Source of the DNA: Patescibacteria group bacterium
Lineage (GTDB): Bacteria > Patescibacteriota > Patescibacteriia > UM-FILTER-42-10
Assembly: GCA_041666485.1 (NCBI GenBank)
Contig: JBAYGW010000002.1
Coordinates: forward strand, 7,711-71,710
Direction of reading: 5' to 3'
Length of the DNA stretch: 64,000 bases
Below, in pieces: positions 29,384 through 63,928 of the stretch (positions within the stretch are counted from its first letter, which is position 1; each line of letters starts with the position of its first letter). A program made the position numbers and the translations under genes. The notes under the pieces were generated by a model. The model had not been told where the DNA came from, did not search any database, and saw only the letters and a program-made list of their open reading frames with translations.

Positions 29384-29411
29384 CCCCGTTAGAGCAAATG
29401 CTCTAACGGGG
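29384..29411. other. Perfect hairpin with a 13-bp stem immediately upstream of the cassette promoter.
   Basis: CCCCGTTAGAGCA-aat-GCTCTAACGGGG. No flanking T-tract. Confidence 0.5.
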
Positions 29412-29440
29412 TTGACAAATTTGTAAAAAAGGTATATAAT
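29412..29440 (+). promoter_or_regulatory. Perfect consensus sigma70 promoter (TTGACA-N17-TATAAT) driving high-GC cassette 1.
   Basis: TTGACA at 29412-29417, exactly 17 nt of spacer, then TATAAT at 29435-29440. It is followed by a ~170-nt leader containing the hairpin GAGGA-gtaa-TCCTC (29531-29544), the palindrome CCACGTG-AA-CACGTGG (29560-29575), and the SD AAGGAG (29598-29603) placed 6 nt before the ATG. Confidence 0.6.
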
Positions 29441-29609
29441 CCCCGGTTAAAAGTACGCCGTTTTGCTTGATGATGTTTCCTTAAACAAATCGGCGTGCTT
29501 TTGCACATAGTTGCCCATTCAAAAACGATTGAGGAGTAATCCTCATAACAATACCTTCACCACGTGAACACGTGGCGAAACAGGAGTCCCCCCAGCCAAG
29601 GAGTTTGTG

Positions 29610-38383: not shown

Positions 38384-38401
38384 ATTATTTGATGTCTTAT
38401 T

Positions 38402-41348: not shown

Positions 41349-41402
41349 ATCTTTTCCCCATAAAGTGATGCACGGGGCGCTTCTATAAAAGAAATTATAT
41401 TA

Positions 41403-43028
41403 TTAAAGTTTTCTCACTACCCCCTTCGTCGCGTCCACTTCCACCAGATCGCCGTCTTTTAAAATTTTGGTTACTATCTTAGTACCAATTACACAGGGGA
41501 TGCCCAGTTCTCTGGCAATGATTGCAGCATGAGAAGTTACTCCCCCCTGTTCTGTAACAATGGCTGATGCTTTTCTCATGGCCGGCATAATGTCTGGATC
41601 TGTTGCGATTGATACCAAAACATCACCATTTTTCATTTTATTCATATCGGAGGCTCTGATAATTATCCTTACCGTTCCCTTACCCCTGCCGACGCATCCG
41701 CATTGTCCTTGTATTTCTGTTATTTCCTCATCAATTGCCATTTTAGTTTTTTCGGCCAGTTTTTTTGCTGTATTTCCAGTAAATACTTTCTCAATTCCTT
41801 TTTCAACATAATACACGCAAAATCTAGTGCGCTGTTGTAATTCTTTTTTGTCGGGCTTTTCCCCGCCGATTAATGCGTCTCTAACCTCTGATTTGAGCAT
41901 AAACCTCGCCTGCATCAGGGAAATATCCAACCGTCTGGCTATCTCCCCTAATACCGGTTGCATGTTATAAATTGCATATATTTGAGCAAAACGGCGGTAA
42001 ATTTTTGTAATCATGAAATCAGACCAACTTGCGAATATTGTTTTCCAGGGGTTTTTTATCTTAAGCCGTTTGATTAGTATATTACGTTTCAGTATTAAAT
42101 CCTTATATTCTTTTTTTTCTTTTTTAATAATTTCGGATGTATTAATCCCTTCTCCGACCAGTTTTACCAGTTCCTTCAAATAATAGTCAAAAGTATAGAT
42201 ACCATCCTTGCCGATCCACATAAATTTTACATAGTGATACTTAACATAATGATACTGAATCAGTTTCAGTATTTCCATTTTAATCTGATCTTTGATATCG
42301 GCAACCTTTTTTTCAAACGCATCCTCATATTCAGGCGTATGCGTTTCCAGTCCGTACGGAGAAGCACTGTATTCTAAAAACTCCTGGTATAATTCCTGAA
42401 AAAGTTTTTTATGATACGGGTCTTTTTGAATTTTTGCCGCGATTGTTAAAAACTCTTCACGTTCAACCTGGATTAGAGATTTTTTTTCAGGTGCAGTCAG
42501 AGTTACTAAATATTCATTAATCTTTTCTTTTCTGACTCCGATTGATTTTAAATATTTTTTAAGCTCCCCGGTAAAGTTGCTATGAAACATATCAGCGGCA
42601 ACGGGTAACCAGCCCCATTGGTAATACTTCGTGTGGATCTCATCATGTCTGCGATAAAGATACCAAAGCTGTTTTTTCGTCATTCTCTCCAGATTTTCTT
42701 GAGGAAGATTATGTGCATAGTAACACAATTTGTCAGACCATTTTATAATCTCTTCATTCGCTTCCACCGAAAATTGAGGATTTTTAATGAACTTATCAAC
42801 TAGATGTTCCCCCTGCTTATACGAGTCATTTTCACCGAGATAAAACAGCATGCGGTATCCCTTGAAAATAGCCATTACTTTTTCGTTGGCAAATCCGCCC
42901 GGCCTGGCAAATTCATTGGCAAAACAGGATAGCCAAATTTGAGAAAAAAATAAATCAATATCCGGTATGTCTTCAGCTAGCATCCACGGATCTGCGCTAT
43001 TTATATACTTAATTTTTCTTGTAGACAT
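41403..43028 (-). CDS. Phosphohistidine swivel-domain (PEP-utilizers) protein, paralog 5 (541 aa).
   Basis: C-terminus GQCGCVGRGKGTVRIIIRASDMNKMKNGDVLVSIATDPDIMPAMRKASAIVTEQGGVTSHAAIIARELGIPCVIGT. Confidence 0.75.
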   Translation of the reverse strand: MSTRKIKYINSADPWMLAEDIPDIDLFFSQIWLSCFANEFARPGGFANEKVMAIFKGYRMLFYLGENDSYKQGEHLVDKFIKNPQFSVEANEEIIKWSDKLCYYAHNLPQENLERMTKKQLWYLYRRHDEIHTKYYQWGWLPVAADMFHSNFTGELKKYLKSIGVRKEKINEYLVTLTAPEKKSLIQVEREEFLTIAAKIQKDPYHKKLFQELYQEFLEYSASPYGLETHTPEYEDAFEKKVADIKDQIKMEILKLIQYHYVKYHYVKFMWIGKDGIYTFDYYLKELVKLVGEGINTSEIIKKEKKEYKDLILKRNILIKRLKIKNPWKTIFASWSDFMITKIYRRFAQIYAIYNMQPVLGEIARRLDISLMQARFMLKSEVRDALIGGEKPDKKELQQRTRFCVYYVEKGIEKVFTGNTAKKLAEKTKMAIDEEITEIQGQCGCVGRGKGTVRIIIRASDMNKMKNGDVLVSIATDPDIMPAMRKASAIVTEQGGVTSHAAIIARELGIPCVIGTKIVTKILKDGDLVEVDATKGVVRKL

Positions 43029-47918: not shown

Positions 47919-48596
47919 CTACATTTTATTACTTTTTATTTTTTCACAATCTCTTTTCCAATTCAAGAATTTCTTCCAAATTTTCTTATCCTTGTGCCAA
48001 TTATCCCGATCCGCCTCATAAGCTTGTTCTAATTCCCATACAACTTCACTGAAGAATCCTATCTTTCTAAAATAAAGGTCCCGGTCTTTTTTGTTAAAAA
48101 GCGCTTCAAATTTAATTTTACGCCTGCTAATCCACTCAGGATATTTTCCGCCAGTATCATCTAAAATAACAATAATTTTTTGAATGTTCAATTCCCCTCT
48201 GACATTTTCAATAAATATTTCCTTACTTGCTCCTGTAGCGATTACATCATCAACCAAAACTGCCCTGGCACCCTTGCTATATATTCCCTCTATTAATGAG
48301 TCTGTGGAATAACCCTTTGCTTTTTTTCTAATGTAAACCCAAGGGAGTTTTGTTTCCAACGCTATGGCAGCAGCCAGGCCAATCCCACCAGTTTCCCCTC
48401 CGGCAATTATTTCAATCTTTGGTTTGATTATTCTAATAATTTCGGCTAATTCTCGCGCTACCATTTTTAGAACAGCCGGATCAGATAGTGCCGCCTTAGG
48501 ATCCCAATAGATTGGAACAATCCGGTTCGCCTGGATCTTTACTCCGGGAGTATAAAAACGCTTCTGGGCTAATATTTTGAATACCTCATTTTTCAT
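47919..48596 (-). CDS. Type I phosphoribosyltransferase (OPRT-like) domain protein, paralog 1 of 5, with a W-rich C-terminal tail.
   Basis: PRPP-binding loop VLVDDVIATGAS. Tail NWHKDKKIWKKFLNWKR. Confidence 0.65.
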   Translation of the reverse strand: MKNEVFKILAQKRFYTPGVKIQANRIVPIYWDPKAALSDPAVLKMVARELAEIIRIIKPKIEIIAGGETGGIGLAAAIALETKLPWVYIRKKAKGYSTDSLIEGIYSKGARAVLVDDVIATGASKEIFIENVRGELNIQKIIVILDDTGGKYPEWISRRKIKFEALFNKKDRDLYFRKIGFFSEVVWELEQAYEADRDNWHKDKKIWKKFLNWKRDCEKIKSNKM

Positions 48597-49222
48597 TTTT
48601 TTACCCTTCCTCCCCAGTTAATTGGATCTTTAAGATATTGTCTAATCGCTAAAGTATCCTCAACATTAAAAATGCCGTGCTCAATACCAAAGTTGGCAAT
48701 CTCTTGAAAAGTAACCAGATAGTGAATCTTTATCCTATTAGCTTTCTCTATTTTCTTTACCAGTTCCTTTTTGACTATAGAAATTACTAAAACATCTTTT
48801 ATTTTTGCCTTGTTTTTTCTTAACACTTTGACAGCATAATTAATATTGCTCCCGGTCACCACCATATCATCAATCAACACCACTTTCTGACGAGGATTAA
48901 TGATTCCTTCAATTTGTTTTTTAGTACCATTCCTCTTCGGCTTTTTTCTTACATAAACCATTGGTTTGGCAAGTGCCTGAGCAAGAATACCAGCAAATGC
49001 AATACCCGCTGATTCATTTCCCGCAATTATATCATAATAACTTGGCAATAATTTTTTTAGTTGGTTAAAAACCGCTGATAATTCTTTTGGGTAAGATAAT
49101 AAATTTCTATGATCAAGATAAATAGGTTGATATAGCCCCGCTCCACCCAATAGCGGCTTCTTGGAATTACAATAAACATTCTGTGCCTTGTATAATGCTT
49201 TAATAATTTTTAGCTTGTTCAT
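48593..49222 (-). CDS. Type I phosphoribosyltransferase-domain protein, paralog 2.
   Basis: VVLIDDMVVTGSNI. It overlaps paralog 1 by 4 nt, and the upstream gene by 4 nt. Confidence 0.65.
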   Translation of the reverse strand: MNKLKIIKALYKAQNVYCNSKKPLLGGAGLYQPIYLDHRNLLSYPKELSAVFNQLKKLLPSYYDIIAGNESAGIAFAGILAQALAKPMVYVRKKPKRNGTKKQIEGIINPRQKVVLIDDMVVTGSNINYAVKVLRKNKAKIKDVLVISIVKKELVKKIEKANRIKIHYLVTFQEIANFGIEHGIFNVEDTLAIRQYLKDPINWGGRVKK

Positions 49223-50817
49223 AGCTTTTTGATTATCCCTCTTTCCGCATCAACCGATATCTTATCGCCATCTTTCAACAGTTTATCACAATCTGCTACA
49301 CCGACCACGCATGGTATTTTCATTTCTCTGGCTACAATCGCAGTGTGACAGGTCAGCCCGCCGGCTCCGCCAATCAACGCTGATGCCTTTTTCATGGCCG
49401 GCACTAAATTCGGGTTGGTGTTATGAGCAACCATAATATCGCCCTGCTTCATTTTTTTTATATCTTCTGGTATGTTAACTATTTTTACAATTCCTTTGAC
49501 TTTACCGGGATAAGCACAGGTCCCGGAAAGCTGTTTTTTGGCATAATTTGGCTTTTTCAGATTAATAGATTGCATAAACTGTACCGCCTGTTCTCCTGTC
49601 ATGACTTTATTTGCAAATCCCGTTTTTCCTTTTCGTTGCCAGTAATCAACAGCTTTCTTTAGCCTTTCATTCAGAATATGTGGATCAACCTTACCACCTC
49701 TCAGTACAGTAATTATTTCACGTGATTTTAAAGCCTGAACTTGACTTACCGATAGTCCAAATCTCTTTCCTACTTCTTTAAAAATATTTTCATAATAATA
49801 CATCGCATTGTACAGCGCATCTTTACGGAAACTCTTGATATAGACCATTTGCCGAGCCATTTTTAAGATATTTTTTTCATGCTTTGAAAATCCCATCTCA
49901 CTGGTAAGCCTTTTCTGCTCTTTGAATAAATCATTTCTATCATTTTTCTTTTGATTTAACATCGCTTGCGGATCTTTTCTTTCACGCAAAAATGCCTGCC
50001 AACGAACTAAATAATCTCCCAGAGGATAAGCTGGACCTTTGTATTGATAGGTAATCGGACTAAATTTATAATAATGCTGATTGATACTTCGCTGAATTTG
50101 TGGATCAATTCCTGATAAATTATTTATCAGGCTTTTCAAACTAGACTGGACAAAAACCTCCCTTAGCTTTCTTTTTTTACTAATCATTAATGCAATTTTT
50201 AGAAAGCTTGTTTCCTCCTGATCAAGCAAGCTGCGTTTAACCGGCGAAGTAAGGATGGAAAAAATCCTTGATGCGCTTTCTTGTATTTTTGCTTTGTTTA
50301 ATTGTTTTTGCACTATTTTCAAGATTGCCTTGGTCAACAGTTGTTCTCCGGCATCCACATGCCAACTTACGCTAGTTGCATATCCATGACTTTGCATGTG
50401 AACTTTGCGAATTTCTGCCATGAGTTCAGCAATTTGCAGATTGCTCATTTTTGATAGATTCATTCTTTTCACTCGGTTCATTATTCTGAAGAATTCTTGA
50501 TTTGCCTCCTCAACTTTTTTCATAATTCCCAAGGCCCATTCTGGTTTTTTTATCGCCTTATCTGCTAGATATCTGCACTGTGTATTAAATTCTTTTTGCA
50601 CATAAATCATTTGGGAGAATTCACCGTCAAAATATGTGAAATATTCTTTTTCAAAATTACCTGCCCCCTGTTTTGGATATACAGAAAAAAACGCCTCAGC
50701 CGGAATTTCCATCATAAAGATAGTGTTCTGGGGGATGCCCTCAACCGCTTCCCATATTTTTTTGCTGGTTGTATTAGGTTTTATTCTTTTCTTTTTCATA
50801 TTATTTGGTGCCCCCAT
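49219..50817 (-). CDS. Phosphohistidine swivel-domain (PEP-utilizers) protein, paralog 6.
   Basis: C-terminus GTCAYPGKVKGIVKIVNIPEDIKKMKQGDIMVAHNTNPNLVPAMKKASALIGGAGGLTCHTAIVAREMKIPCVVGV. The track ORF (to 50931) runs into the tRNA-Arg gene. I chose the internal ATG at about 50817 (MGAPNNMKKK...). An alternative start is the ATG at 50799. Confidence 0.7.
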   Translation of the reverse strand: MGAPNNMKKKRIKPNTTSKKIWEAVEGIPQNTIFMMEIPAEAFFSVYPKQGAGNFEKEYFTYFDGEFSQMIYVQKEFNTQCRYLADKAIKKPEWALGIMKKVEEANQEFFRIMNRVKRMNLSKMSNLQIAELMAEIRKVHMQSHGYATSVSWHVDAGEQLLTKAILKIVQKQLNKAKIQESASRIFSILTSPVKRSLLDQEETSFLKIALMISKKRKLREVFVQSSLKSLINNLSGIDPQIQRSINQHYYKFSPITYQYKGPAYPLGDYLVRWQAFLRERKDPQAMLNQKKNDRNDLFKEQKRLTSEMGFSKHEKNILKMARQMVYIKSFRKDALYNAMYYYENIFKEVGKRFGLSVSQVQALKSREIITVLRGGKVDPHILNERLKKAVDYWQRKGKTGFANKVMTGEQAVQFMQSINLKKPNYAKKQLSGTCAYPGKVKGIVKIVNIPEDIKKMKQGDIMVAHNTNPNLVPAMKKASALIGGAGGLTCHTAIVAREMKIPCVVGVADCDKLLKDGDKISVDAERGIIKKL

Positions 50818-50880
50818 GAGGAATCCCCGCCAGAGGCGGGTGCGCCTCGGGCGCAGAACCTTTAACTTAATACTCCAGAT

Positions 50881-50957
50881 TGGTGTGCCCGACAGGACTT
50901 GAACCTGTGGCCTTGAGATCCGGAATCTCACGCTCTATCCAACTGAGCTACGGGCAC
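50881..50957 (-). tRNA. tRNA-Arg (anticodon CCG).
   Basis: The reverse complement folds as GTGCCCG/CGGGCAC acceptor, GCTC-AGTTGGATA-GAGC, anticodon stem TGAGA/TCTCA with loop TTCCGGA, T-arm ACAGG-TTCAAGT-CCTGT, discriminator A, and CCA. Confidence 0.8.
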
Positions 50958-50962
50958 ATGAC

Positions 50963-51682
50963 TTAAATTTTATAAAAACTTTGATCAAAAGTTAAGTTTC
51001 TCTCTTTTGCCGCCAATTCTTTGAATCGTTTCCAGTTGGCGGGGACTTTTTGCCAGGCTAATGGATCCTTGAGTTGTTCAATAATCAAATCCCCTAATTT
51101 TTTACTGATAAATTTATTATCAGCCGCATATTTCATCATTTCCGGCCAGGTAAAAAGAGCGATGAATTTATATTTTTTATTTTCCCTGAGCCAACGTTGC
51201 GGTTTACGGTATTTTGGTCCATAAAATGCATCCATAATCACGATGATGCCTTTAACCTTCAAACCAGCCGCTGTTAATGTTTTAATAATTTCTTTTTTAT
51301 CCCCGCCTGTTGACATCGCATCATCAATAACCACCACGCTTTGGCCTTTCCGATACATACCTTCAATTACATTCCTAGTATTGTACCCTTTTGGCTTCTT
51401 CCTTAGATACAGGAAATCTTTTTTCAAAATACTGGCCACTGCTACACCGTAAGGCACCCCCGCCGCTTCTCGGCTGGCAATCAGATCCGACTTCACACTT
51501 CTTGCTGATTTTGCCAGTTCTTGGGTCAGTATACTAAAGACCTTATTCCGGGAGAAGGCCTTGCGGTGGTCTGGATATAAGGGAAAATGTCCGATACGCG
51601 GACTAATAAAGTTCCCTGCCATAAAATATCCTTTGAATAACAATGCTTTCGCTGCCCGCTTATTCATATTATATTCTGACAT
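50963..51682 (-). CDS. Type I phosphoribosyltransferase-domain protein, paralog 3.
   Basis: VVVIDDAMSTGGDK. Tail PLAWQKVPANWKRFKELAAK. Confidence 0.65.
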   Translation of the reverse strand: MSEYNMNKRAAKALLFKGYFMAGNFISPRIGHFPLYPDHRKAFSRNKVFSILTQELAKSARSVKSDLIASREAAGVPYGVAVASILKKDFLYLRKKPKGYNTRNVIEGMYRKGQSVVVIDDAMSTGGDKKEIIKTLTAAGLKVKGIIVIMDAFYGPKYRKPQRWLRENKKYKFIALFTWPEMMKYAADNKFISKKLGDLIIEQLKDPLAWQKVPANWKRFKELAAKERNLTFDQSFYKI

Positions 51683-51737
51683 TGAATCTTATAAATTTAT
51701 TTCATCCAGAGAATATTCAGAAGACCGCCAGTAGTAT

Positions 51738-52445
51738 TTACTTTCCTGAGTCAGTGAAACCCTCCGATTTTGCCAGTGATACAAACTCATTCCACTTTTT
51801 ATTATCCTTTTGCCATACCTTCAAATTTTTCCAGATATCATACATATAATCGCCCAGCTTTTTTGAAATATAGCCGTTCTTAACCATATACTTCACCAAG
51901 TCATTATGTTTCACAAATGAATGTATTTTAATTTTATTTTTGGCATAAAACGGAATATATTCCACCCCGGCATCATAAAGCACCAACACATCGCTTACAA
52001 CCAGACCTTTTCTCTGCAGTGTCTTGATAAAACGTTCCTTTGTACTGCCGGTACCGATCCCGTCATCTACCACTAATACATTTTCACCCTTCCTGTATAA
52101 TCCTTCCAATAAAGTTACTGTTGAGCCGTCCTTTTTTGTTTTCTGCCTGAGATAAATAAACGGTTTATGGGATGCTAGCGATACAGCCATGGCCAGCGGA
52201 GTACCGGAAACCATGGTGCCGGCCACTAAATCAATCTTTTTTCCTTTCATAAAGTCGGCGATTTCTTCTGATACCACTTTCATTTTATCCGGATGGGAAT
52301 AGAGCCGTTTACTGGTAATATAGATCGGCGACGGCTCGCCAAGTGATCCATAAAATTTACCAAAGACAAAAAAACCGAAATCACTGAGTAGCTTGGCGAT
52401 ACGTTTATTCATACGGACAATAATTATTAGAGTATTAGATAGCAA
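51738..52445 (-). CDS. Type I phosphoribosyltransferase-domain protein, paralog 4.
   Basis: VLVVDDGIGTGSTK. Tail LKVWQKDNKKWNEFVSLAKS. Confidence 0.65.
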   Translation of the reverse strand: MLSNTLIIIVRMNKRIAKLLSDFGFFVFGKFYGSLGEPSPIYITSKRLYSHPDKMKVVSEEIADFMKGKKIDLVAGTMVSGTPLAMAVSLASHKPFIYLRQKTKKDGSTVTLLEGLYRKGENVLVVDDGIGTGSTKERFIKTLQRKGLVVSDVLVLYDAGVEYIPFYAKNKIKIHSFVKHNDLVKYMVKNGYISKKLGDYMYDIWKNLKVWQKDNKKWNEFVSLAKSEGFTDSGK

Positions 52446-52483
52446 CTACTATCATAATGGATTTTCTGCTTTTTGAAAACCCT

Positions 52484-53218
52484 TCATTTCCTCATATCAT
52501 CCACTGCATTAATTACTGACTGCGGAATCTGACATTTTAATTTATTCAAGACCTCAAAATAAACATCCCATTTTGATACATCCTTCTGCCAGACTTCCGG
52601 ATGCAGGGCATAATCCATAAAATGCGGATAGATTTCCTTATCAATTTTTCCCCGTCTGTATAAACCATCAATTAGTTCTTCCCAGGTAAAAAGATTATAA
52701 ATGGGTATACCACTAACTTCTAAATTTTCTCTTGCTTCGTTTTTAGTAAAATATTCTGCCATAGTTTTAAAGATCATGGCCAGAGCAACAGTTACCACGC
52801 CGTCATGCTTCATATTTTCAACAAACAATGTTTTAGCTTCCCCCTTAGCCATCAGATCATCTACCAGAATCGCCCGGTCGCCCGGTCTGGCCCGTCCGGA
52901 AATGTAAGTATCCTCGCCTCGGCCACGCTGCTTTTTCCGAACGTAACTGAAAGGAATCCTAGTTTTATAGGATAAAAGCGTTGCTAATGGCATGCCGGCC
53001 GTTTCTGCTCCTACAATCAAATCAATTCCGTGCCAGTCAACCAGCTTAAGCAGTTCATCGGTAACTAAATCCATAAGCTCCGGATTGGAGAACGCTTTTC
53101 GATTATCCGTCTGTAACGGAATCGGCCCGACTGAAACGACTACCGGATATTCACCAACCAGATTAGGCGTGGCCGCATATAAATCAAAAATTTTTTCTTT
53201 AGTTTCTTGGTTAATCAT
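52484..53218 (-). CDS. Type I phosphoribosyltransferase-domain protein, paralog 5.
   Basis: AILVDDLMAKGEAK. Tail PEVWQKDVSKWDVYFEVLNK. Confidence 0.6.
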   Translation of the reverse strand: MINQETKEKIFDLYAATPNLVGEYPVVVSVGPIPLQTDNRKAFSNPELMDLVTDELLKLVDWHGIDLIVGAETAGMPLATLLSYKTRIPFSYVRKKQRGRGEDTYISGRARPGDRAILVDDLMAKGEAKTLFVENMKHDGVVTVALAMIFKTMAEYFTKNEARENLEVSGIPIYNLFTWEELIDGLYRRGKIDKEIYPHFMDYALHPEVWQKDVSKWDVYFEVLNKLKCQIPQSVINAVDDMRK

Positions 53219-53328
53219 GGTTATTCTAATTACTTTTCCTTGTTTTATTTTAGCATGAAATCTATTATTTTGTACTGGTTAATAATTAACTGACGAAATT
53301 GATTCCCATACTAAGTACTGTCGCAGGA

Positions 53329-53357
53329 GTTGACAAAAGCGAGAAATAGGTGTATAA
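53329..53357 (+). promoter_or_regulatory. Perfect consensus sigma70 promoter (TTGACA-N17-TATAAT) driving high-GC cassette 2.
   Basis: TTGACA at 53329-53334, a 17-nt spacer, then TATAAT at 53352-53357. Confidence 0.6.
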
Positions 53358-53522
53358 TTGTCTGTTAAAATTTATTCTCTTTTGGAGAGAATGCGGGCAC
53401 TCTCTTGCAAGTGAAAAATTCATTTTCAGCAGAGTGCCTACTTTACTGGCACATTGACATAAAACACAACCAGTCCAGAAATTCTGGCTGGTTTAGAATC
53501 ACCACTGTCATGGAGGTAACCA
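53358..53522 (+). promoter_or_regulatory. Structured ~165-nt 5' leader of cassette 2, possibly a cis-regulatory RNA.
   Basis: Nested inverted repeats TTCTC-ttttg-GAGAA, GGCACTCT...AGAGTGCC (8-bp stem) and CCAG-tCCAGAAatTTCTGG-CTGG, then the SD GGAGGT placed 6 nt before the ATG. Confidence 0.4.
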
Positions 53523-54125
53523 ATGACGAAGCGAGTATTCGTCCAGGGTGATCGTGATCCTGGCGTAGATCTCTCCGCATGCGCGCTGAAGACTGCTCAG
53601 CTCCTCAAGCAGAGTGGCTGGGAAGCGAACGTCGGCGCGTACGGCGGACTGGTTCGGATCTTTGAGGAGTCTGGCATGCGCTGCCATGCGCATGTTATGG
53701 CACCTCGCGGCAGGGAAGTTCAGTTCAGCGACTGCATCGTGTCGGTCACGGACTGTAACCAACTCGTGCGGTCTCTCCCGGCGAATATCCGCTGGGGAGG
53801 CGAAGCCGACCAGATTCTCACTTGGGGGCTCCGTCTCAGCGTCTGGATGGCCCATTCCGATGCCTTCATTTTCTTCGCCGGCCGGGAAGGCACGATGGCC
53901 CATCTCGTGCCGATCCTGGCCTGGAACCGCAAAGTTCTGGCCAAGGAAGGCCGGGCCAAGAAGGTCGTCCTGATCGGATGGGACAAGCTGCAGCGGGATG
54001 CACTCTACACCTTGGGATTGATCACAATCCCGGAAGGTGATTGGGCCTCCGATGACGCGGAATGGTTCCGCACATACTCAATGTACAACGTTGAGGGAGC
54101 CGTCAACTTCCTCACCGAGGAGTGA
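53523..54125 (+). CDS. Divergent LOG/SLOG-family (Lonely-guy, TIGR00730-like Rossmann fold) protein. High-GC and foreign. 200 aa.
   Basis: HSDAFIFFAGREGTMAHLVPILAW aligns with the LOG signature [24 protein letters not shown], and AYGGLVRIF is in the position of GGGxxGLMG. The catalytic Glu of the PGGxGTxEE motif is replaced (MAH). GC3-rich codons. Confidence 0.55.
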   Translation: MTKRVFVQGDRDPGVDLSACALKTAQLLKQSGWEANVGAYGGLVRIFEESGMRCHAHVMAPRGREVQFSDCIVSVTDCNQLVRSLPANIRWGGEADQILTWGLRLSVWMAHSDAFIFFAGREGTMAHLVPILAWNRKVLAKEGRAKKVVLIGWDKLQRDALYTLGLITIPEGDWASDDAEWFRTYSMYNVEGAVNFLTEE

Positions 54126-54131
54126 CAACAC

Positions 54132-54263
54132 ATGGACTTCATCAAGCCTCTCCTGCTGGTGGTGTCACTAGTGTGTTTGCTGACTGCGGCGAAGGACCAT
54201 CGTGGTGATGGACCGCTCGCCAAAATCGGCACCCTGCTCCTTATCGTTGGCGCTATGGCGTAA
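54132..54263 (+). CDS. 43-aa hydrophobic membrane peptide, translationally coupled to the LOG-like gene.
   Basis: MDFIKPLLLVVSLVCLLTAAKDHRGDGPLAKIGTLLLIVGAMA. The ATG lies 6 nt after the upstream stop. High GC. Too short to appear in the ORF track. Confidence 0.4.
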   Translation: MDFIKPLLLVVSLVCLLTAAKDHRGDGPLAKIGTLLLIVGAMA

Positions 54264-54285
54264 GCCTGGGGCGCCCTCACCCTTT

Positions 54286-54338
54286 CCCCCGCGTGTCGTA
54301 CTGATTAGTTTCGGTACGATGCGCGGGGTGTTTATTTT
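54286..54338. terminator. Rho-independent terminator ending cassette 2. It overlaps the 3' end of the convergent APH-like gene.
   Basis: CCCCGCGTGTCGTAC...GTACGATGCGCGGGG is a long imperfect stem, followed by TGTTTATTTT. Confidence 0.55.
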
Positions 54339-55378
54339 GTCAAAATATCTGTATACCAATCAGCCGTTTTGTTTTCACTTCTGGTTATTAAAGCCAATCC
54401 GGTTTCTCTGATTTTTGCCTCCAATCGTGGCTGATTCTTATAATATGACCCGGACCGACCATCAGTTCTGGAAACCATATATACCCCGGTCCAGACAGTG
54501 ATTCGCCTAATAATCCCCTCAATCTCTTGAGCAGAAATGCCGAAGGATCTCATTGTTTCAATGTATGCTTTGTTAAAATATTTAATGAAATATCGGCAAT
54601 CTCTGACAACCTGCTCATTGCCTTCTAATAACTTGATTACCCAATGTGCTAGAAATATGCCATTATCAAAAGCCGGATCATGATGTATGGCAAAATCAAA
54701 ATCTAACACCGAAAAATTGTATTTACTGACAAAGATATTTCTATGCACAGGATCGCCCCAAATGAAGGCCTTTTTGGCTTTATCAGATTGGTTGGTGAAT
54801 TTACTGATTACTTCCTTGGCCACAAGTTTTTTAGCACCAAACATAACCCAATCCCGCCATATGCCATGAATTCTTTTTTGCCAATCAGCACCATCAAATG
54901 CAAGCGGTGTATTATAGGTTTTTCCATGCAGTGTGCCAAAAAAAATGCCAAATTTTTCTGCTAGCTGAGGATACACTTTATGTTTATCAAATTCTTCAAC
55001 CAAGATCTTCTTTTTTCCTTGTATATCATCCATCACCAAAATATAATTTTGAAGATCAATATATAAGACCATTGGTACAATTTCTTTGCCGAGTAATGAT
55101 TCTAATAACCTCAGTTTTTCACCTTCAATTATTACTCTTTCCGGATCTACGCGAATTCTCCTGTTTCTCTTAACATACCCGTCAGACTGTTTCAAATACA
55201 AAATCTTTTTACCCCGACTGGTAAGACAGTTCACCCGATAGACAAAACAGGCATTGGTATATTTTGTTACCTCCTCTACGCTAGTTACTTTTTTTAATTC
55301 AAAAGAAAATTCTTTCGCTGCTTGAGTGAGCAAATATTCAGCAATGTTTCCTTCAGTTAGAAAAAATCTTTTTCCCAT
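54332..55378 (-). CDS. Protein-kinase-like fold phosphotransferase (APH, choline-kinase or MTR-kinase family).
   Basis: WGDPVHRNIF aligns with the HGD...N catalytic loop, and VLDFDFAIHHD with the DFG/DFE metal-binding motif. Overall ~350 aa, typical of the APH family. Confidence 0.5.
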   Translation of the reverse strand: MGKRFFLTEGNIAEYLLTQAAKEFSFELKKVTSVEEVTKYTNACFVYRVNCLTSRGKKILYLKQSDGYVKRNRRIRVDPERVIIEGEKLRLLESLLGKEIVPMVLYIDLQNYILVMDDIQGKKKILVEEFDKHKVYPQLAEKFGIFFGTLHGKTYNTPLAFDGADWQKRIHGIWRDWVMFGAKKLVAKEVISKFTNQSDKAKKAFIWGDPVHRNIFVSKYNFSVLDFDFAIHHDPAFDNGIFLAHWVIKLLEGNEQVVRDCRYFIKYFNKAYIETMRSFGISAQEIEGIIRRITVWTGVYMVSRTDGRSGSYYKNQPRLEAKIRETGLALITRSENKTADWYTDILTK

Positions 55379-56868: not shown

Positions 56869-59800
56869 TTATTCCTCGCTGTCCGGTTTAGGATTCGGCT
56901 CTGCCGGAGGCTCCGGTGTTGGTCCGGAAGCAGGTGGAACATCACCTGTCGCAGGTGCCTGCTCCGTTGTAGCAGTGTTTGGATTTCTAGTATCCGGTTT
57001 AGATGCCTCGGGTTTCGGAGTAACTTCATGCCAATCCGTAGTCCCCGCAGGACTCGGCGCGGGGCCGGCACCGCCTTGCGGACGGCTGGGTCTCGGGTTA
57101 GGTCCGCTAGATCTGGAAGCTGCCGGTCTTGGACCTGTCTGTCCGCCTCCGCTAGATGGTTTTGGAGCGCCGTCTCCTGACGGAGCTTCTTCTCCCTTAC
57201 CGGCTTTTTCACCTTTCAATGTCTTTACTAACTGCGTTAACGCGTAAACCAGTGTCTGTTGCATCATCGGATTGTTCATTTTTCCGCTAGCAACCAATTC
57301 TGAATGAAGGCCAAAAGCATCAACCGCATCCCGGGCTTTATTTTGTTTTTCCGGATCTTTTATTTTATCAATATTTTCTTTCAGTGCCAGGACCATGTTA
57401 CCGATACTCTGGTTCAAATCAAGGAATGACTGCGGATCAATCACCTTGCCAAGTGTTGCAAACTGGTTGCTTAAGTCAGCCAGTCCGGCGGCGAGTGCAT
57501 CCATTCCTGTCATAGATTCCGCGTCCTTCGGCATCAGATCAGCCAACCCCTGTTCAATTGCCGCTTGATTCGCAGCTTCCAGATCATCGGATAGTTTCTT
57601 CACACCCGCAACCTGAGCATTCACTACTCCTTCCATTGCATCATCATCCAATGTATCCACAAATTCCCCGTCCATTTTCTTCTTTGCCCACTTTTTCTTT
57701 CCGCCTGTTTTCTTGTCTAATACTTCATCATACTCATATGTAAAATCGCCGTCACTAATCGGGGTTCTGTCTTTAAGACTGGTACGTAAATCTTTTTCGT
57801 GCTTTTCCGCTGCCGCCTTAGGTTCCAGAACTGGTTTTTCTTTTGGTAATTCACCCAGACCCGGTTTCATTCTGGATACATCTACAGGCATCTTTTCCTT
57901 ATCATTACTATAGTTATAGTAATCTTCATCTATCGGAATAGACAATTCAGGTTTTTTTGCTCCACGGTAGGCACTATTCCACAACGCCCTGATCATAGAT
58001 GGATTAATTGCGTATATATCTTCAAATCTTTTCTTGGCAACTGGATCAGGCTTTGGCATTCCTTTCTCGTCCAGAACTACATTGTTATTTTCATCTTTTT
58101 CTGGCACAAAATTTCCTTTTTCATCAAATATCCGATCTCGCCAGTTTTCATCACTGATTCCATTGTGACTGCCGACCAGAATCTGGGACAGGCGCGCCTG
58201 AAAATGATGCGCTTCCGGAATCATGGAAGGTGTCAGTACTTCACCCAAAAATCTTTTCTGGGAAACAGACATAAGATCCGCGTCAGTTGAAAAATCCCAA
58301 CCAGCACCTAAATCTTTTCCATCTTCATCTTTTCTGTTTTCTTTATACACTAGCGAGTGCATGGCATGAGGAGCCACACCCTGCATAAAAGCACGAGATC
58401 CGCGTTTGCGCGCTTCCCCTTTTACTTCGCCGATTCTTTCATCCTCGTTCATAATCCGATACTTGCCGGTTTTCGCATCCAAAGTAGCCATCGTCTGCTC
58501 CCAGTGGCCGACATTACGTGACGACTGGCTGATTGTATACATGGTACGTAATGCAGTCTGCTCTTCATGTGTAGCATTTTCCGCACTCTTATTGGATTCT
58601 GCAGTAGCTTCTTTCATTAATCTACTTCTCTCTTTTGGATCAGCCTTATCGTAATCAATATTCTGTTCTTTTGCTTTTCTTTTAGCAATGGTTGTGGGGT
58701 CAAATTTACCACGATCCAACTGCAAATAACCCATGGTAAACTGCTTGAACCCTTCATCATCCATGACTTTGGCTTTTTCCCAGCTATCAAACCCGAATTG
58801 CTGGGCTGTTGTATTATCCTTAATCAGACCGCTGGAAAGAAAATGGGCATACACATCATCCAAATTGCCTCGTTCCGCGGCTAATTCAATAATAGCCTCA
58901 CGGGAACGCTCCCCTTTGATACCACCCAAACGCATCGCTTGTTCCGCCAGTTCCGCCATTTTCTCCTTGCCGGCGCCGGACTCCGAGATCTCTTTCATCA
59001 TTTCGCCTTTGTATTCACCCACCACTGCACTACGGGCCATTTCCGCTCGCTGCATAGCTGCGCCCTTGGGTGAAACTTTAAGATTACCCCGTTTCTGACG
59101 GAAAAAACGCGGTAACCATTCGTCCATTACCTTTTCCGCCATCTCTTCTCCCTTACCGGCTATTTCCCTGTTTTGTTGGGTGGCTAAACGCTCTCCTCTC
59201 TGGCCGATACCCTTCCAATAGGAAGGGCTCAATATCGGGGCTTTTTCTGTGATCTTTCTGCCGATTGCACCGTAGGTTCGCTTGGCAAACCGGTTGTTGA
59301 AAGGCTTCTTTAAGGTCTTCATACCCATTGATTTCAGCTTGTCCGGGAACCGGCCGACGGTTGAACCGCCCATCACGCCGAATTCCTGAGTCAGCATAAT
59401 ACCGGTCAGAAGCAGTGCAATAGTAATAATATAATTAAACATGTTCTGGGTGTTCATGATTGCCGAAGCACCCTTTGGCAGTTTTGTAGCATCAACAGCA
59501 TCAGAGTCTGCTAATGTTCCATCGCTCACTCCAATATCAGACAAATCAATCGGCGCTCCCGCGCTGGTAGAGATCACGGAAAGTGATAACCACAAAAAGA
59601 AAGCCAGCACCGGACCGGCCGTCAGATTTTTACCCAGTTCCGTCCACCACCTGCTGGCATAGCGTGAAGTATTGGGTAACACTGATGCAATGTAGGCAAC
59701 CGGAGAAAGAATAACCAGGATCCAGATCATCAGAATTCTTGCTATTAAGATAACTAGCATGGCAAGTAAAACCGCAATCGCAACCACCAGCATCCCGTTG

Positions 59801-60411
59801 GCTAAAAAAATAGCCATTATTACGGAACCGATGCCTAACATACCGTCTGTATCTTTAGCAAAACTGGTCATTTGAGCGAGATTCAAACCAACCGTCAAGA
59901 CAATCGCCGCGGAATCTTTAAATGAATTCACAAATGTCAGCATGATCACCTGTGAAAAATCCACAAAGATGCCGGTGATCGTTTTACTGAAGTTAATCAG
60001 CACCGCCATGATAATCATTTTTGTCAGCAGACTGCGCGCGTGATACTGCTGGAGTTTCATGATTGTACCGAAAGCGATGACAATCAGAATTACGATAAAC
60101 ATCATGTTGGACAGATCCCTGATAATCGTCCAGCCGATATGCACCGCCGGCGGCGCTTTCATGTTGACGAAATTATTATAGCTGAATATTTTAATTACCA
60201 ATTCAATCAGCATACCCAGCAATGCTCCCAACAATTTCATAATATTTGCCCCAAAGCTTCCAATCGCACCAATAATCGCATCAGAAACATCAACACCTAA
60301 AATTGCTTCCGTTTTTACCGGGAAAACCAGTCCGACAAATATAAGCACAGCCAACACACCAAGTATTGGTAATAGCGCTTTTCTGAACCGTGACAAAATC
60401 TTTCTGAACAT
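56869..60411 (-). CDS. Giant polytopic membrane protein (1180 aa) with about 8-10 N-terminal TM helices and a long C-terminal extension ending in a Pro/Gly/Ala-rich low-complexity tail. Possibly VirB6/TrbL-like.
   Basis: Multiple hydrophobic helices in the first ~330 aa (LPILGVLAVLIFVGLVF, MMFIVILIVIAFGTIM, LVVAIAVLLAMLVILIARILMIWILVILSPVAYI...). C-terminus GEEAPSGDGAPKPSSGGGQTGPRPAASRSSGPNPRPSRPQGG... The small ORF 56835-57212 in another frame is probably spurious. Confidence 0.55.
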   Translation of the reverse strand: MFRKILSRFRKALLPILGVLAVLIFVGLVFPVKTEAILGVDVSDAIIGAIGSFGANIMKLLGALLGMLIELVIKIFSYNNFVNMKAPPAVHIGWTIIRDLSNMMFIVILIVIAFGTIMKLQQYHARSLLTKMIIMAVLINFSKTITGIFVDFSQVIMLTFVNSFKDSAAIVLTVGLNLAQMTSFAKDTDGMLGIGSVIMAIFLANGMLVVAIAVLLAMLVILIARILMIWILVILSPVAYIASVLPNTSRYASRWWTELGKNLTAGPVLAFFLWLSLSVISTSAGAPIDLSDIGVSDGTLADSDAVDATKLPKGASAIMNTQNMFNYIITIALLLTGIMLTQEFGVMGGSTVGRFPDKLKSMGMKTLKKPFNNRFAKRTYGAIGRKITEKAPILSPSYWKGIGQRGERLATQQNREIAGKGEEMAEKVMDEWLPRFFRQKRGNLKVSPKGAAMQRAEMARSAVVGEYKGEMMKEISESGAGKEKMAELAEQAMRLGGIKGERSREAIIELAAERGNLDDVYAHFLSSGLIKDNTTAQQFGFDSWEKAKVMDDEGFKQFTMGYLQLDRGKFDPTTIAKRKAKEQNIDYDKADPKERSRLMKEATAESNKSAENATHEEQTALRTMYTISQSSRNVGHWEQTMATLDAKTGKYRIMNEDERIGEVKGEARKRGSRAFMQGVAPHAMHSLVYKENRKDEDGKDLGAGWDFSTDADLMSVSQKRFLGEVLTPSMIPEAHHFQARLSQILVGSHNGISDENWRDRIFDEKGNFVPEKDENNNVVLDEKGMPKPDPVAKKRFEDIYAINPSMIRALWNSAYRGAKKPELSIPIDEDYYNYSNDKEKMPVDVSRMKPGLGELPKEKPVLEPKAAAEKHEKDLRTSLKDRTPISDGDFTYEYDEVLDKKTGGKKKWAKKKMDGEFVDTLDDDAMEGVVNAQVAGVKKLSDDLEAANQAAIEQGLADLMPKDAESMTGMDALAAGLADLSNQFATLGKVIDPQSFLDLNQSIGNMVLALKENIDKIKDPEKQNKARDAVDAFGLHSELVASGKMNNPMMQQTLVYALTQLVKTLKGEKAGKGEEAPSGDGAPKPSSGGGQTGPRPAASRSSGPNPRPSRPQGGAGPAPSPAGTTDWHEVTPKPEASKPDTRNPNTATTEQAPATGDVPPASGPTPEPPAEPNPKPDSEE

Positions 60412-60427
60412 TCTTGATTGATATAAT

Positions 60428-63400
60428 TTAACTTGGCTGTACCGTTATTGTTCCGCCGAACTCCTGATAATCCTGGGTATTTATATCACACGGACGATGT
60501 CCGGGTGCCGCATCATTCTGGTCATTACAGAATCCCCAGTTATCTTTCAGCATAATCTCAATATTATAGACTTGTGTTGAACCGGGCTCGTCATAAGTAT
60601 GCGACATCAAATGCGGCTGGCTCGGATCAGATTTCGGCGCGCCGTTCCAGACGATAGAGCTGGTAGAACCGTCACCCCAGTCAATAACTATATTTTTCAA
60701 AGCTTCCTGCTCCGGATCCACAAAACTGGTGAATGAAAGAGTGATGGATCCACCGCCGAATAATTCCACGTCACCTTCAGCACCGTTGATCAAAACATTA
60801 TCAATCGCCGGAAGAATTGCGCAGTAGTCATTATCTGGCGGCCAGGTTGGACGTGGCCCGACACCGCCGGCATTACAGAGCGGCATAGTGTTGAAATCAT
60901 CATTCCATTCATAGTTCCAGCTTCCGATTGCGCCCGGAATTTTTTCGTATGTTGCCGTATCTACATCCCAGAACCAGGCATCATAAACATAGGCAAAGAT
61001 TCTTTGCAGATTATCCACCGCCCATACATTGCCATCAAACCCTGATGTTTGTCTTACCCCATCCCCGGCGTTTCTAGCTGCCAATCCGACACAAGATCCA
61101 GCGTTGATGCTGGTGCAATACGCATCATCGGTACAATACTTTGTCGCATCACCACTGCAATAGCCAAGCCCTACGCACACGCCGCGATTGCCGTCTTCTC
61201 CTCCGCAATCAGCATCTGTTGTACAGGAATATTGAGTACCACGATGCACCGTGTCATAACTACCGCCCATACAAACTTTCGGCACGCAATCGCCTTCGCA
61301 ACTGTATGGACTACCCGCTCGTGTATTATTTACAGGTGGCGTGGGTGTGTTGTCAAAATTCTCAATATATAAAGGCTGTAAACCGTCCGATATACTACTG
61401 TCCCAAGTTGATCCCGGATCATCACCCTGCCCCGCTACAATCGCGCCGAACGGAGCGGCGTTTTCACCATACTTGTACAGTAAATCGCGAATTTGATATG
61501 AGCTGGTATTGGCAGTTCTCTGTGCCCAAGCTTTATCGTCGGAAATACTAGCCACTTTTGCCACCTCTGTACAAACGTCACGCAAATACACATATCCCAT
61601 CACCCACATCCCACCAGTATCGCCGCTGCCATCTTCCATATAAACATAATAACTGTCTATGGTGTGATCTGTGGCCGAAAAATTCGTTTTAATTCTAAAA
61701 TGGTTATCATTACCGTCCCAACTGATATCCCAGTCATTTTCAGCATTGGCTACCCAGGTAGCTCCGCCACCCGGCCAGTCAGCATGTGACGACCGCTGTT
61801 GCACCCATTCAATCCGGTCAATTTCCCAGTCATGGTAAGTCCGGTCGCTTCCTTGGGCGGTAATTGTACTGTTTATCCCGCCTCCACCACGGCAACTGCA
61901 GAATCCAATACCGTCAGCCGGAGTGTGATTAACTAATGTATCATTACACCAACCAATATCTTCAAGTGATCCGCATTCATTGTCATCTCCTTCACAACTT
62001 TCACTCATTATTCCTGCATTAGCCCATACAGTCACCAAGTTACGACGATAGCCGGCAATCTGACCGACTAAATCAGTTTTAATATTAGAAGCACCACAAG
62101 TGCTGTTTTCATCATCATTACCGAGAAGTGTTGTAGTATTATCCCAATTACCGGTTGCTTCCACGCACATGTATAACGGCCTGCGGCCTTTATAGCCCGC
62201 CGGATCCACCGTGCCGAACACGCTGGACTCGCCGGAAATGACATCCACCGGCCACCAGGTAATACACTTATCAGGGTTGGAAGGATCCGATTCTATACAG
62301 TAACCCTGCCAGCCGTTGAACTGCACCAGATCACTGTTGGTATATTGGCATACCTCCGAATCCTCTCTCGGATAAGCACGGCAGGAACGTACCAGATATT
62401 TCTGATCACCGTCAGTAGTGGAAAGGTTTTCCGCCGGAACCGCTGTGATCCCCGGCGCTCCAGGTGGCTGCCAGTTGAATTGCATAGATGAATTACCCAG
62501 TTTCTGATAATACTCAATCATGATCGGATGCCAGCCGGCGTCCAATCCGTTGACGGTAAACGAATCATCATGCACACCATCCGTCCAATTTTCATGGACC
62601 GGCACAGTAAGATCGTCAATAAAGAATTTATATCCGTCGTCAGCAACTAAATTAAACAAATGATTACCTGCGTTTTCTACCAGAATCTTTCCGGTCCAGC
62701 GCACCGCGACCATTTCCGTAGCCCCGGCATTGTCATTTAAAAGCGTCGGCATGGAAGCATTGTCATACTGCAGGTAATCGCTGACATAGGTTCCTAAATA
62801 ATTTCCATAAGTCAACTCCAGTTCTGTAGTCAGGTTTGTTTGTGGTACTAAATAGTTGCTCGGAATGGCGGTAATTCTATTATACGTCGGGAAAAGCATT
62901 CCTTCGGTGAGCGGGCTTATTACACCGTCACCATTTTGATCCCAGGCATAGTTGATACAGAATGCGTCCGGTATTCCGCCACCGCAATTTGTCGGATTCC
63001 ATTGACCCGGATACCAGCCCATCTGCAAGCCACCATAACCACCTCCGTTAGTGAACTCAATTTTAACCGGATGCCAGCCGGCAGTGAAATACTGCGACCA
63101 CATATAACCCAGTGTCGGGATACTACCCCAGGCACTGACAATTTCCGCGCCCGGTGCCATGTCATCCACCCAAATTCTGACTCCGTCATTCACATTGAAA
63201 AACAATGTATGATATCCGGATGTTGTGAAATTAATTCCACCCTCCCACCTACCGGAACTGATATTAACTATGAAATCACCATCATCCGGAACTAGCGGAT
63301 CCATTTCTCCGGGGATTGATACGGTTGCATCTCCGTTTCCGCATAGTGTACAAATTGCCCCTCCTGCTGCATCACACGCAACACATGGTTCATACCAATT

Positions 63401-63928
63401 TAATTTTGGTACGATGTAGGGATTTCCGGGGCATGCCGTCACTAAGTTACCATCAGTAAAACATTGTTCATTCAATCCGGATTGACTGGTTGAACTCGGT
63501 TGATAAACAAAAGTATAAAAATCTCCACGGATTCCCGGTGAATCAGAAGCTTTGACTGCCAGCGCCGGTTTCATAGATACATTGTCTACGGCAAAGGAGA
63601 CATTACCACCCATATTTCTGATTAAAAGGAATGTTTCCGCGTTCTCATCCGGGATACCGTTAATCTCCACCGGTTTCAACACCTGCTGTTCCCAGCCGGT
63701 TGAGCCGTCAAAATATCCCAGGAAGTTTTCACCGACAATATCGCCGTTAAAATCAAACTGAGCAAGTGAAACAGAAATCGTTTCCTGTCCAACTTCCGGC
63801 AGGTTTTCAAACCGGAAATCCAGACTGGCAATGTATTCAGCATTGTTCAAAATATTCGTTCCCAAACTGGTTTTGACGCCCAGTCCAGTAAACTCACAAC
63901 TGCCGATCACACACTCACCACCCGCCAC
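60428..63928 (-). CDS. Giant Cys-rich secreted protein (about 1166 aa) with two PA14-like domains.
   Basis: GYHTLFFNVNDGVRIWVDDMAPGAEIVSAWG and NHLFNLVADDGYKFFIDDLTVPVHENWTDG...GWHPIMIEYYQKLGNSSMQFNWQ resemble PA14 carbohydrate-binding modules. Many Cys residues. The start is a GTG at 63928 (a TTG at 63934 is an alternative), bounded by an upstream in-frame stop at 63947. Confidence 0.55.
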   Translation of the reverse strand: MAGGECVIGSCEFTGLGVKTSLGTNILNNAEYIASLDFRFENLPEVGQETISVSLAQFDFNGDIVGENFLGYFDGSTGWEQQVLKPVEINGIPDENAETFLLIRNMGGNVSFAVDNVSMKPALAVKASDSPGIRGDFYTFVYQPSSTSQSGLNEQCFTDGNLVTACPGNPYIVPKLNWYEPCVACDAAGGAICTLCGNGDATVSIPGEMDPLVPDDGDFIVNISSGRWEGGINFTTSGYHTLFFNVNDGVRIWVDDMAPGAEIVSAWGSIPTLGYMWSQYFTAGWHPVKIEFTNGGGYGGLQMGWYPGQWNPTNCGGGIPDAFCINYAWDQNGDGVISPLTEGMLFPTYNRITAIPSNYLVPQTNLTTELELTYGNYLGTYVSDYLQYDNASMPTLLNDNAGATEMVAVRWTGKILVENAGNHLFNLVADDGYKFFIDDLTVPVHENWTDGVHDDSFTVNGLDAGWHPIMIEYYQKLGNSSMQFNWQPPGAPGITAVPAENLSTTDGDQKYLVRSCRAYPREDSEVCQYTNSDLVQFNGWQGYCIESDPSNPDKCITWWPVDVISGESSVFGTVDPAGYKGRRPLYMCVEATGNWDNTTTLLGNDDENSTCGASNIKTDLVGQIAGYRRNLVTVWANAGIMSESCEGDDNECGSLEDIGWCNDTLVNHTPADGIGFCSCRGGGGINSTITAQGSDRTYHDWEIDRIEWVQQRSSHADWPGGGATWVANAENDWDISWDGNDNHFRIKTNFSATDHTIDSYYVYMEDGSGDTGGMWVMGYVYLRDVCTEVAKVASISDDKAWAQRTANTSSYQIRDLLYKYGENAAPFGAIVAGQGDDPGSTWDSSISDGLQPLYIENFDNTPTPPVNNTRAGSPYSCEGDCVPKVCMGGSYDTVHRGTQYSCTTDADCGGEDGNRGVCVGLGYCSGDATKYCTDDAYCTSINAGSCVGLAARNAGDGVRQTSGFDGNVWAVDNLQRIFAYVYDAWFWDVDTATYEKIPGAIGSWNYEWNDDFNTMPLCNAGGVGPRPTWPPDNDYCAILPAIDNVLINGAEGDVELFGGGSITLSFTSFVDPEQEALKNIVIDWGDGSTSSIVWNGAPKSDPSQPHLMSHTYDEPGSTQVYNIEIMLKDNWGFCNDQNDAAPGHRPCDINTQDYQEFGGTITVQPS

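Follow-up and report, generated by a model that had tools for sequence, protein, structure and literature searches.

A GC-rich LOG-like gene of Patescibacteria with a consensus promoter, a conserved structured leader and a methylthioribose-kinase-like neighbour

Layout of the cassette

We analysed a 64-kb stretch of DNA (64,000 nucleotides, referred to throughout as the window, with positions counted from its first letter) from a Patescibacteria group bacterium. The subject here is a GC-rich cassette at 53330-54338, which we refer to as cassette 2 and which encodes a divergent protein resembling the Lonely guy (LOG) enzymes. The cassette is a discrete, autonomous and strongly promoted unit, in which promoter, leader, open-reading frame (ORF), small peptide and terminator follow one another on the forward strand. 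It opens with a consensus sigma-70 promoter, TTGACA-N17-TATAAT (53330-53358, +), matching the consensus at 12 of 12 positions; three perfect sigma-70 sites were observed in the window, where 0.05 would be expected by chance. A structured 5′ leader follows (53365-53522, +; 164 nt separate the −10 hexamer from the ATG), and a Shine-Dalgarno sequence, GGAGGT (53512-53517, +), can be read 5 nt 5′ of the ATG at 53523, its GGAGG being present in all four leader versions. The ORF (53523-54125, +) encodes 200 aa at a GC content of 0.594, or 0.716 at third codon positions (GC3), a 43-aa peptide (54132-54263, +) comes after it, and the unit closes on an intrinsic terminator (54287-54338, +) with a stem of 18 pairs, 11 of them GC pairs (54287-54328), then a T tail. 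Amongst the related loci (given L numbers below), the promoter is also kept in L003, L011, L012 and, as TATAGT, in L001, and the terminator has homologues in L001, L003 and L011. The original prediction for this DNA had named a perfect promoter, the same Shine-Dalgarno sequence, a GC3-rich 200-aa ORF and a strong terminator, all of which stand, as does its observation that cassette 2 is built like a second GC-rich unit of the window, cassette 1, the two having a promoter, a long leader and an ORF in common.

Fold and binding pocket of the LOG-like protein

The exact 200-aa protein has a database record reading 'MAG: hypothetical protein WCT33_00825 [Patescibacteria group bacterium]' (MAG, metagenome-assembled genome), and had been proposed to be a divergent LOG/SLOG-family member in which the catalytic Glu is replaced. 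Sequence models matched the family weakly (8 of 19 members for PF03641, 3 of 19 for PF18306). The question of the fold was settled by structure, using an AlphaFold2 model and profile-profile alignment with hhalign. The model, built from 19 homologs, has a mean predicted local distance difference test (pLDDT) score of 91.2 and a Rossmannoid alpha/beta fold that superposes on LOG structures, and in the structural comparison the protein was nearest to LOG enzymes, with ThsA and YpsA less similar. Aligned by hhalign to a canonical LOG/SLOG-cluster-4 protein, encoded directly 5′ of the family member in L004, the family profile gave a probability of 91.7% (E 7.8e-7), pairing GAYGGLV with GGYGGVM, R104 with the LOG Arg, and GREGTMAH with GGFGTTVE, which sets His127 against the Glu. 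A profile search of the PDB reached a best E of 0.031, with ten of ten weak matches being LOG-family proteins aligned on SDAFxxxPGGxGT. The proposed likeness to LOG was therefore found in structure and in profile-profile comparison, but not at the Pfam PF03641 cut-off; judged by the predicted structure, the protein has a LOG-like fold and belongs to the LOG clade of SLOG.

In CgLOG, Arg99 and Glu122 are proposed to be catalytic, and the PGGxGT loop and Thr119 hold the phosphate (PMC4979012). The counterpart of Arg99, nine residues before the SDAF strand, is present here as R104, whilst PGGxGTxxE with its catalytic Glu is lacking and the motif reads AGREGTMAH. Counted across 60 family representatives, W153 is conserved in 59, T124 in 56, R104 in 55 and C78 in 44, and position 127 is His in 41, Glu in seven and Gln in six. 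The alignment shows the phosphate-binding GxxGT loop retained together with the catalytic Arg, and the motif Glu replaced, as had been predicted, with His standing in its position. This pattern suggests that the binding pocket has been remodelled, not decayed.

Distribution, synteny and inheritance

The LOG-like family is small: a collection of 5.8 billion proteins has 19 clusters of it at 90% identity, and one of 1.84 billion has 67 at 50% identity. All its named members are from Patescibacteria or Kerfeldbacteria. The promoter-leader-ORF layout, which the original prediction suggested looking for in other genomes, was found in the same place in independent assemblies: the whole of cassette 2 recurs with phosphoribosyltransferase (PRTase) genes on one side and the gene of a 348-aa kinase on the other, followed further along by a 447-aa ORF and a membrane protein of ~1200 aa. 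These assemblies are L001 and L002 (two JGI samples; 77% protein identity to the window), L003 and L015 (ENA and JGI; 55%), and L011 and L014 (Logan and JGI; 49%). An assembly chimera from a high-GC organism, which would have undone the original prediction, is therefore ruled out, as the same unit and synteny occur in at least three other Patescibacteria assemblies. The ratio of nonsynonymous to synonymous substitution rates (dN/dS) of the LOG-like gene is 0.17-0.30, with dS of 0.5-2.2 between lineages, and its divergence broadly matches that of the flanking genes; by these measures the gene is vertically inherited in fixed synteny and under purifying selection. Searches of phage, plasmid and IMG/VR viral contigs gave no relatives of the LOG-like protein, and a literature search on LOG in Patescibacteria, on methylthioribose (MTR) kinase in the candidate phyla radiation (CPR) and on GC-rich Patescibacteria genes found nothing specific.

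A canonical LOG/SLOG-cluster-4 gene of ordinary GC lies at 2431-3198 of L004, directly 5′ of the GC-rich LOG-like gene, and another canonical LOG gene occurs in the LOG-like neighbourhood of the P0012 contig. The GC-rich gene is therefore an additional, divergent paralog-like copy, not a replacement.

An invariant kinase neighbour and adjoining phosphoribosyl genes

The 348-aa kinase, encoded at 54332-55378 (−) with an ordinary composition (GC3 0.33), has an APH fold (Pfam APH, E 2.3e-7). Its best NCBIfam match is MTRK (TIGR01767; E 5e-14, 52 bits against an equivalog cut-off of 275) and its only PDB relative at E < 0.01 is the MTR kinase 2olc, so that it is MTR-kinase-like but not an ortholog of S-methyl-5-thioribose kinase. 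An ortholog, 33-70% identical to the window kinase, sits directly 3′ of the LOG-like gene in nine of nine distinct flanked loci and in the P0012 contig (10/10), the two genes being convergent in the window's clade and in L006, and co-directional in L004, L005 and L007. The invariant partner of the LOG-like gene is this kinase, which the original prediction did not mention, and not the 43-aa peptide; we regard it as a probable functional partner.

On the other side lie five orotate-PRTase-like paralogs together with a phosphoenolpyruvate (PEP)-utilizer swivel-domain protein and a tRNA gene (47919-53218, −). The five adjoining PRTase paralogs had been predicted, and all proved orotate-PRTase-like, though each is below its equivalog cut-off. 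The predicted setting in phosphoribosyl chemistry is likewise supported, both by these genes and by the syntenic neighbourhoods of the relatives, which also carry phosphoribosyl pyrophosphate (PRPP) synthase, nicotinate phosphoribosyltransferase (NAPRTase), a carbohydrate kinase and a canonical LOG. The tRNA gene at 50884-50957 (−) overlaps the 5′ end of a listed 570-aa ORF, the PEP-utilizer gene at 49219-50931 (−), the true start of which is probably further downstream.

The constancy of the kinase pairing, taken with the change of the motif Glu to His or Gln in most members, could also be explained if the LOG-like protein were a non-catalytic carrier or regulator, binding a nucleotide or phosphoribosyl metabolite, in the way that the molybdenum cofactor carrier protein (MCP) binds its ligand, and delivering it to the kinase or the PRTases, or regulating them. 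We consider this unlikely, as the Arg, the Thr of GxxGT, C78, W101 and His127 are conserved at ~30% identity, which is the pattern of an active site and not of a relic, and as seven distant members keep the Glu.

The 43-aa peptide and the conflict-system alternative

The 43-aa peptide begins 6 nt after the TGA of the first ORF (ORF1), with GAGGAG 9 nt upstream, and its frame is the only one open in the window, L001 and L003, where it runs for 43 codons in each case with no indels. Identity among the three species is 65-77%, the substitutions are conservative, and the hydropathy profile shows two hydrophobic segments flanking a KxHRxDG loop. The stop of ORF1 and the start of the peptide are separated by 6 nt in the window, 4 nt in L001 and 2 nt in L003, which implies that the two are coupled and not fused; the coupled hydrophobic peptide had been predicted, and where present it looks like a real gene from its conservation. 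Recoding of the UGA, or a read-through fusion of the two ORFs, was considered and rejected: the ORFs are in frame in the window alone (…LTEE-TGA-Q-H-M…, 54123-54134), the spacers of L001 and L003 break the frame, so that a fusion is not conserved, and long ORFs are intact under table 11.

Of the ten loci with context, however, only the window, L001 and L003 have the peptide. It is absent from L011 and L012, where a terminator stands directly 3′ of the LOG-like stop codon, from the P0012 contig, where 75 nt separate the LOG-like gene from the kinase gene, from L004, L005 and L007, and from L006, the last judged from called genes only. Neither Pfam nor PADLOC gave a match for the peptide, and we take it to be a lineage-specific accessory, not part of the core of the system.

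This distribution bears directly on the function first proposed for the cassette, a conflict module in which a SLOG sensor, on detecting a nucleotide second messenger, would switch on the 43-aa peptide as a membrane-damaging effector. The altered catalytic Glu and a hydrophobic peptide coupled downstream of ORF1 would suit such a module, as would two weak PADLOC matches to PRTase_III-A (E ~7e-5) on one adjoining PRTase. These were the only PADLOC matches, and PADLOC was blank for the LOG-like protein, the peptide and the kinase. A SLOG-sensor conflict system would combine a signal-generating enzyme with an effector in a defence or mobile context, but no cyclase, TIR or other signal generator and no other defence gene was seen near cassette 2, the neighbours of which are PRTases, the kinase and housekeeping genes. 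With the effector missing from seven of ten loci, no relatives on phages, plasmids or viral contigs, a fixed place among salvage genes with vertical descent under purifying selection, and a structure nearest to LOG enzymes instead of ThsA or YpsA, the sensor-effector claim is not supported and we consider a conflict module improbable.

A conserved structured leader

The leader has a minimum free energy of −51.7 kcal/mol (z = −4.4 against shuffles) and was predicted to contain three nested inverted repeats; it is structured, and three hairpins are present, but they stand in series: P1 (53373-53393, +), P2, a composite stem (53395-53439, +) with arms of 20 nt that are 80% complementary in the repeat search, and P3 (53468-53493, +). 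Between P2 and P3 runs an unpaired 20-nt stretch, TTTACTGGCACATTGACATA (53442-53461, +), which in its RNA form, UUUACUGGCACAUUGACAUA, is the same in three of the four versions and has three differences in L011. The P2 and P3 helices were found again in four species with five compensatory pairs, 92.5% of the cells in the consensus being paired compared with 37-46% when the partners were slid, and the observed covariation was reached by at most 7 of 500 shuffles. Nucleotide identity in the leader is 0.73-0.83, at least as high as in the coding sequence (0.68-0.85), whereas the 100 nt 5′ of the −35 hexamer are at the background level of 0.59-0.71. Only four distinct leader versions were found in the collections searched, each of them 5′ of a LOG-like gene, and the distant relatives L012, L004, L005 and L007 have promoters that are equally strong, with short leaders.

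The leader, which is conserved and structured, had been called riboswitch-like or attenuator-like. At the gathering score, Rfam 15 passed only tRNAs across the whole window and none in the leader, and an E-value scan of 53250-54400 overlapped the leader only with rliE, on the opposite strand and scoring 16 bits where the threshold is 90; the top match of the whole scan reached 17 bits against 72. A terminator scan of the leader (53359-53522) found no intrinsic terminator, P3 being followed by UUUA in the window and CACA in L001; the terminator and antiterminator of an attenuator or a terminator-type riboswitch are thus not seen within it. With no Rfam match and no internal terminator, either label can be applied only tentatively. 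The unpaired segment and the 5′ arm of P2 share the pentamer GGCAC, and the P2 3′ arm GUGCC could pair with either copy, which would make a two-state switch possible, though of only 5 bp.

A scan for the exact 20-mer in GTDB genomes (596 Gb) gave one true locus and one chance match, the latter at L010 391-410, within coding sequence of a Granulosicoccaceae MAG contig that is otherwise dissimilar; we estimate that ~1 chance match is expected for a collection of that size. A degenerate 28-mer scan of JGI metagenomes recovered only loci already known, and an nhmmer search of the window and all loci with the leader gave no additional match, missing the leader of cassette 1 as well. Homology between the leaders of the two cassettes was not upheld, as direct alignment was unconvincing and the architecture alone is in common. 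The conserved leader of cassette 2 may be a candidate new cis-regulatory RNA.

GC-rich composition maintained in a low-GC genome

The genome from which the window comes is ~40% GC, compared with 0.59 in the cassette 2 ORF, and the GC3 of this ORF (0.716) is 7.9 standard deviations above that of the other 42 window ORFs (0.385 ± 0.042, maximum 0.453). GC is 0.38-0.43 in the leader, steps up to ~0.60 from the start codon and falls again after the terminator. The codons CTC, CTG, AAG and ATC are favoured, with TTA, AGA and ATA not used at all, and the protein contains little Lys and much Ala, Gly, Arg and Trp. By these counts, the codon usage is that of a high-GC organism.

A GC of 0.59 in a ~0.40 genome, codon and amino-acid usage of a high-GC kind and a GC step exactly at the ORF borders are what would be expected of a passenger gene, one recently arrived from a high-GC donor (or joined by chimeric assembly) and unrelated to its surroundings. 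We compared 70 codons that, across four syntenic lineages, agree in amino acid and in their first two bases: the third base was shared by all four in 17, and had changed in at least one lineage in the remaining 53, yet GC at these 70 third positions is still 0.66-0.74 in each lineage, whereas the kinase gene next to it has 0.22-0.37. The GC-richness extends to more distant members of the family, which lie in other low-GC contigs and exceed their flanks by 14-19 GC points. Assemblies made independently from different samples moreover have the unit in the same position, with a divergence close to that of the flanking genes (dS as given above), and recent acquisition or chimerism is, on these comparisons, largely refuted and very improbable. 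Standard amelioration predicts that a foreign-composition signal decays. The GC-rich coding composition instead is, from the codon comparison, a trait maintained despite saturated synonymous change, and high GC3 in the face of synonymous turnover implies selection on composition or a biased process. From an attempt to polarise GC-to-AT and AT-to-GC changes by parsimony, which is unreliable at saturation and gave a mirror-image bias in the control gene, only compositional stationarity was used. That four diverged lineages keep a GC3 close to 0.7, beside genes at 0.2-0.4, is an evolutionary puzzle.

Cassette 1 (promoter 29412-29440, ORF 29607-30272) encodes a protein with a histidine-phosphatase fold that has kept its RH motif; it is unrelated to cassette 2, but shows the same high-GC behaviour (GC3 0.84). 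The genome of a relative has two copies, each with a perfect promoter, a ~200-nt leader and a GC3 of 0.74-0.77, and their 3′ regions are identical to each other. A perfect 13-bp inverted repeat, CCCCGTTAGAGCA-AA-TGCTCTAACGGGG (29384-29411), abuts the −35 hexamer of cassette 1; possibly an operator or the remnant of a terminator, it is kept in one of the two L016 copies. The third perfect promoter of the window, TTGACA-N18-TATAAT at 8081, heads an operon (8081-12737) of a small membrane protein, LemA, an M48 (HtpX-like) peptidase and a ClpB/ClpC-like AAA+ ATPase, which from its gene content looks like a stress operon. The GC3 of the LemA/M48/ClpB-like operon is ordinary (0.32-0.44), and on this limited evidence a general GC3-richness of strongly expressed genes was ruled out.

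A bolder explanation would make cassettes 1 and 2 members of an undescribed class of 'compositionally insulated' CPR genes, each an autonomous unit with a consensus promoter, a long structured leader, an ORF and a terminator, and held ~20 GC points above the genome by selection instead of recent transfer, with the leader acting as a new metabolite- or protein-responsive switch. We regard this as doubtful, but if it were true, the mRNA may escape an AU-directed RNase, or its stability or translation may be favoured in a certain physiological state, and the leader could sense a ribose-phosphate or nucleobase metabolite.

Other features of the window

The window also contains a stand-alone PPDK_N (ATP-grasp) protein and many paralogs of ~500 aa (28326-29300, 31457-32965, 36869-43028 and 49219-50931, and in L016 9776-16648). 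The paralogs that were scanned, a set comprising those of L016 by precomputed Pfam and excluding four ORFs at 36869-43028, end in a PEP-utilizer swivel domain. From their domains, the PPDK_N protein and these paralogs look like a split dikinase system whose substrate modules have diversified, and both GC-rich cassettes adjoin members of the PEP-utilizer array. A TraG/VirB4-like P-loop ATPase is encoded at 23875-25770, within a region at 19796-26496, and PrgI- and TraC-like genes occur in L016. After the cassette region, at 56869-63928, are two proteins of ~1170 aa, one with a PA14 domain and the other with no match. By domain content, the genes at 19796-26496 and 56869-63928 look like type-IV-secretion-like and surface proteins.

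A proposed role in nucleotide and ribose-phosphate salvage

Based on the fold, the retained pocket residues and the invariant gene neighbourhood, we favour, by a modest degree, a role for the LOG-like protein in nucleotide or ribose-phosphate salvage, alongside its MTR-kinase-like neighbour and with its own strong, leader-controlled expression. The protein would bind an N-ribosyl-5′-phosphate compound in its retained pocket and probably cleave it, and the released pentose would then be phosphorylated by the neighbouring kinase, parallel to the two-step route from MtnN to MtnK. Ribose phosphate and free base would thereby reach the PRTases, in an organism unable to synthesise nucleotides de novo. 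Expression would be driven by the consensus promoter and tuned by the leader, probably through translation or mRNA stability as the leader has no terminator. The hydrophobic 43-aa peptide that three species have gained, coupled to ORF1 by translation, would most likely be a small membrane-associated accessory subunit.

Several observations weigh against this proposal. No sequence model reaches its curated threshold for the LOG-like protein, PF03641 scoring 14.4 bits (E 0.046) against a cut-off of 27 and NCBIfam giving no match. The protein lacks the Glu needed by LOG enzymes, so that hydrolytic activity is uncertain and it could be a binder only, and the substrate proposed here is a guess. The kinase gene is convergent in the window's clade and hence not co-transcribed with the LOG-like gene, the leader covariation, resting on four sequences, is suggestive only, and a salvage role leaves the high GC and the peptide unaccounted for. 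The proposal matters because CPR/Patescibacteria, being unable to make nucleotides, rely on salvage, a large part of their gene content for it lacks annotation, and a Glu-to-His LOG derivative locked to an MTR-kinase-like partner beside a PRTase array is a candidate for a missing salvage step.

Comparison with known systems

The closest likeness is to LOG/PpnN proteins (PF03641), phosphoribohydrolases of the SLOG superfamily that act on cytokinin riboside or nucleotide 5′-monophosphates, with which the LOG-like protein shares an N-terminal glycine-rich loop (GAYGG here, GGYGG in LOG), the SDAFxxxxGxxGT phosphate loop with the catalytic Arg, and a genomic setting among nucleotide-salvage genes. 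It differs in reading AGREGTMAH for PGGxGTxxE, with both Glu residues lost and the second replaced by His, in an insertion of ~15 residues between strand 4 and the Arg helix, in near-invariant residues peculiar to the family (QGDR, C78, W101 and W153), in its score under the Pfam threshold and in its limitation to a handful of Patescibacteria lineages. MCP (2iz5), a non-catalytic ligand carrier with the LOG fold, also lacks the LOG catalytic Glu; however, there are no molybdenum-cofactor genes near the LOG-like gene, the product of which keeps the Arg and the GxxGT loop. Structural similarity to the SLOG domain of ThsA (Thoeris) and to YpsA, both SLOG sensors of conflict or stress systems, is clearly lower than to LOG enzymes, and the LOG-like protein has no fused effector, TIR partner or defence-island context. 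The pairing of an N-glycosidase-type protein with an MTR-kinase-like kinase recalls the MtnN to MtnK steps of methionine salvage, but the LOG-like protein differs in fold from MtnN, which belongs to the PNP/UDP phosphorylase family, and the kinase is far under the MTRK equivalog cut-off (52 against 275 bits).

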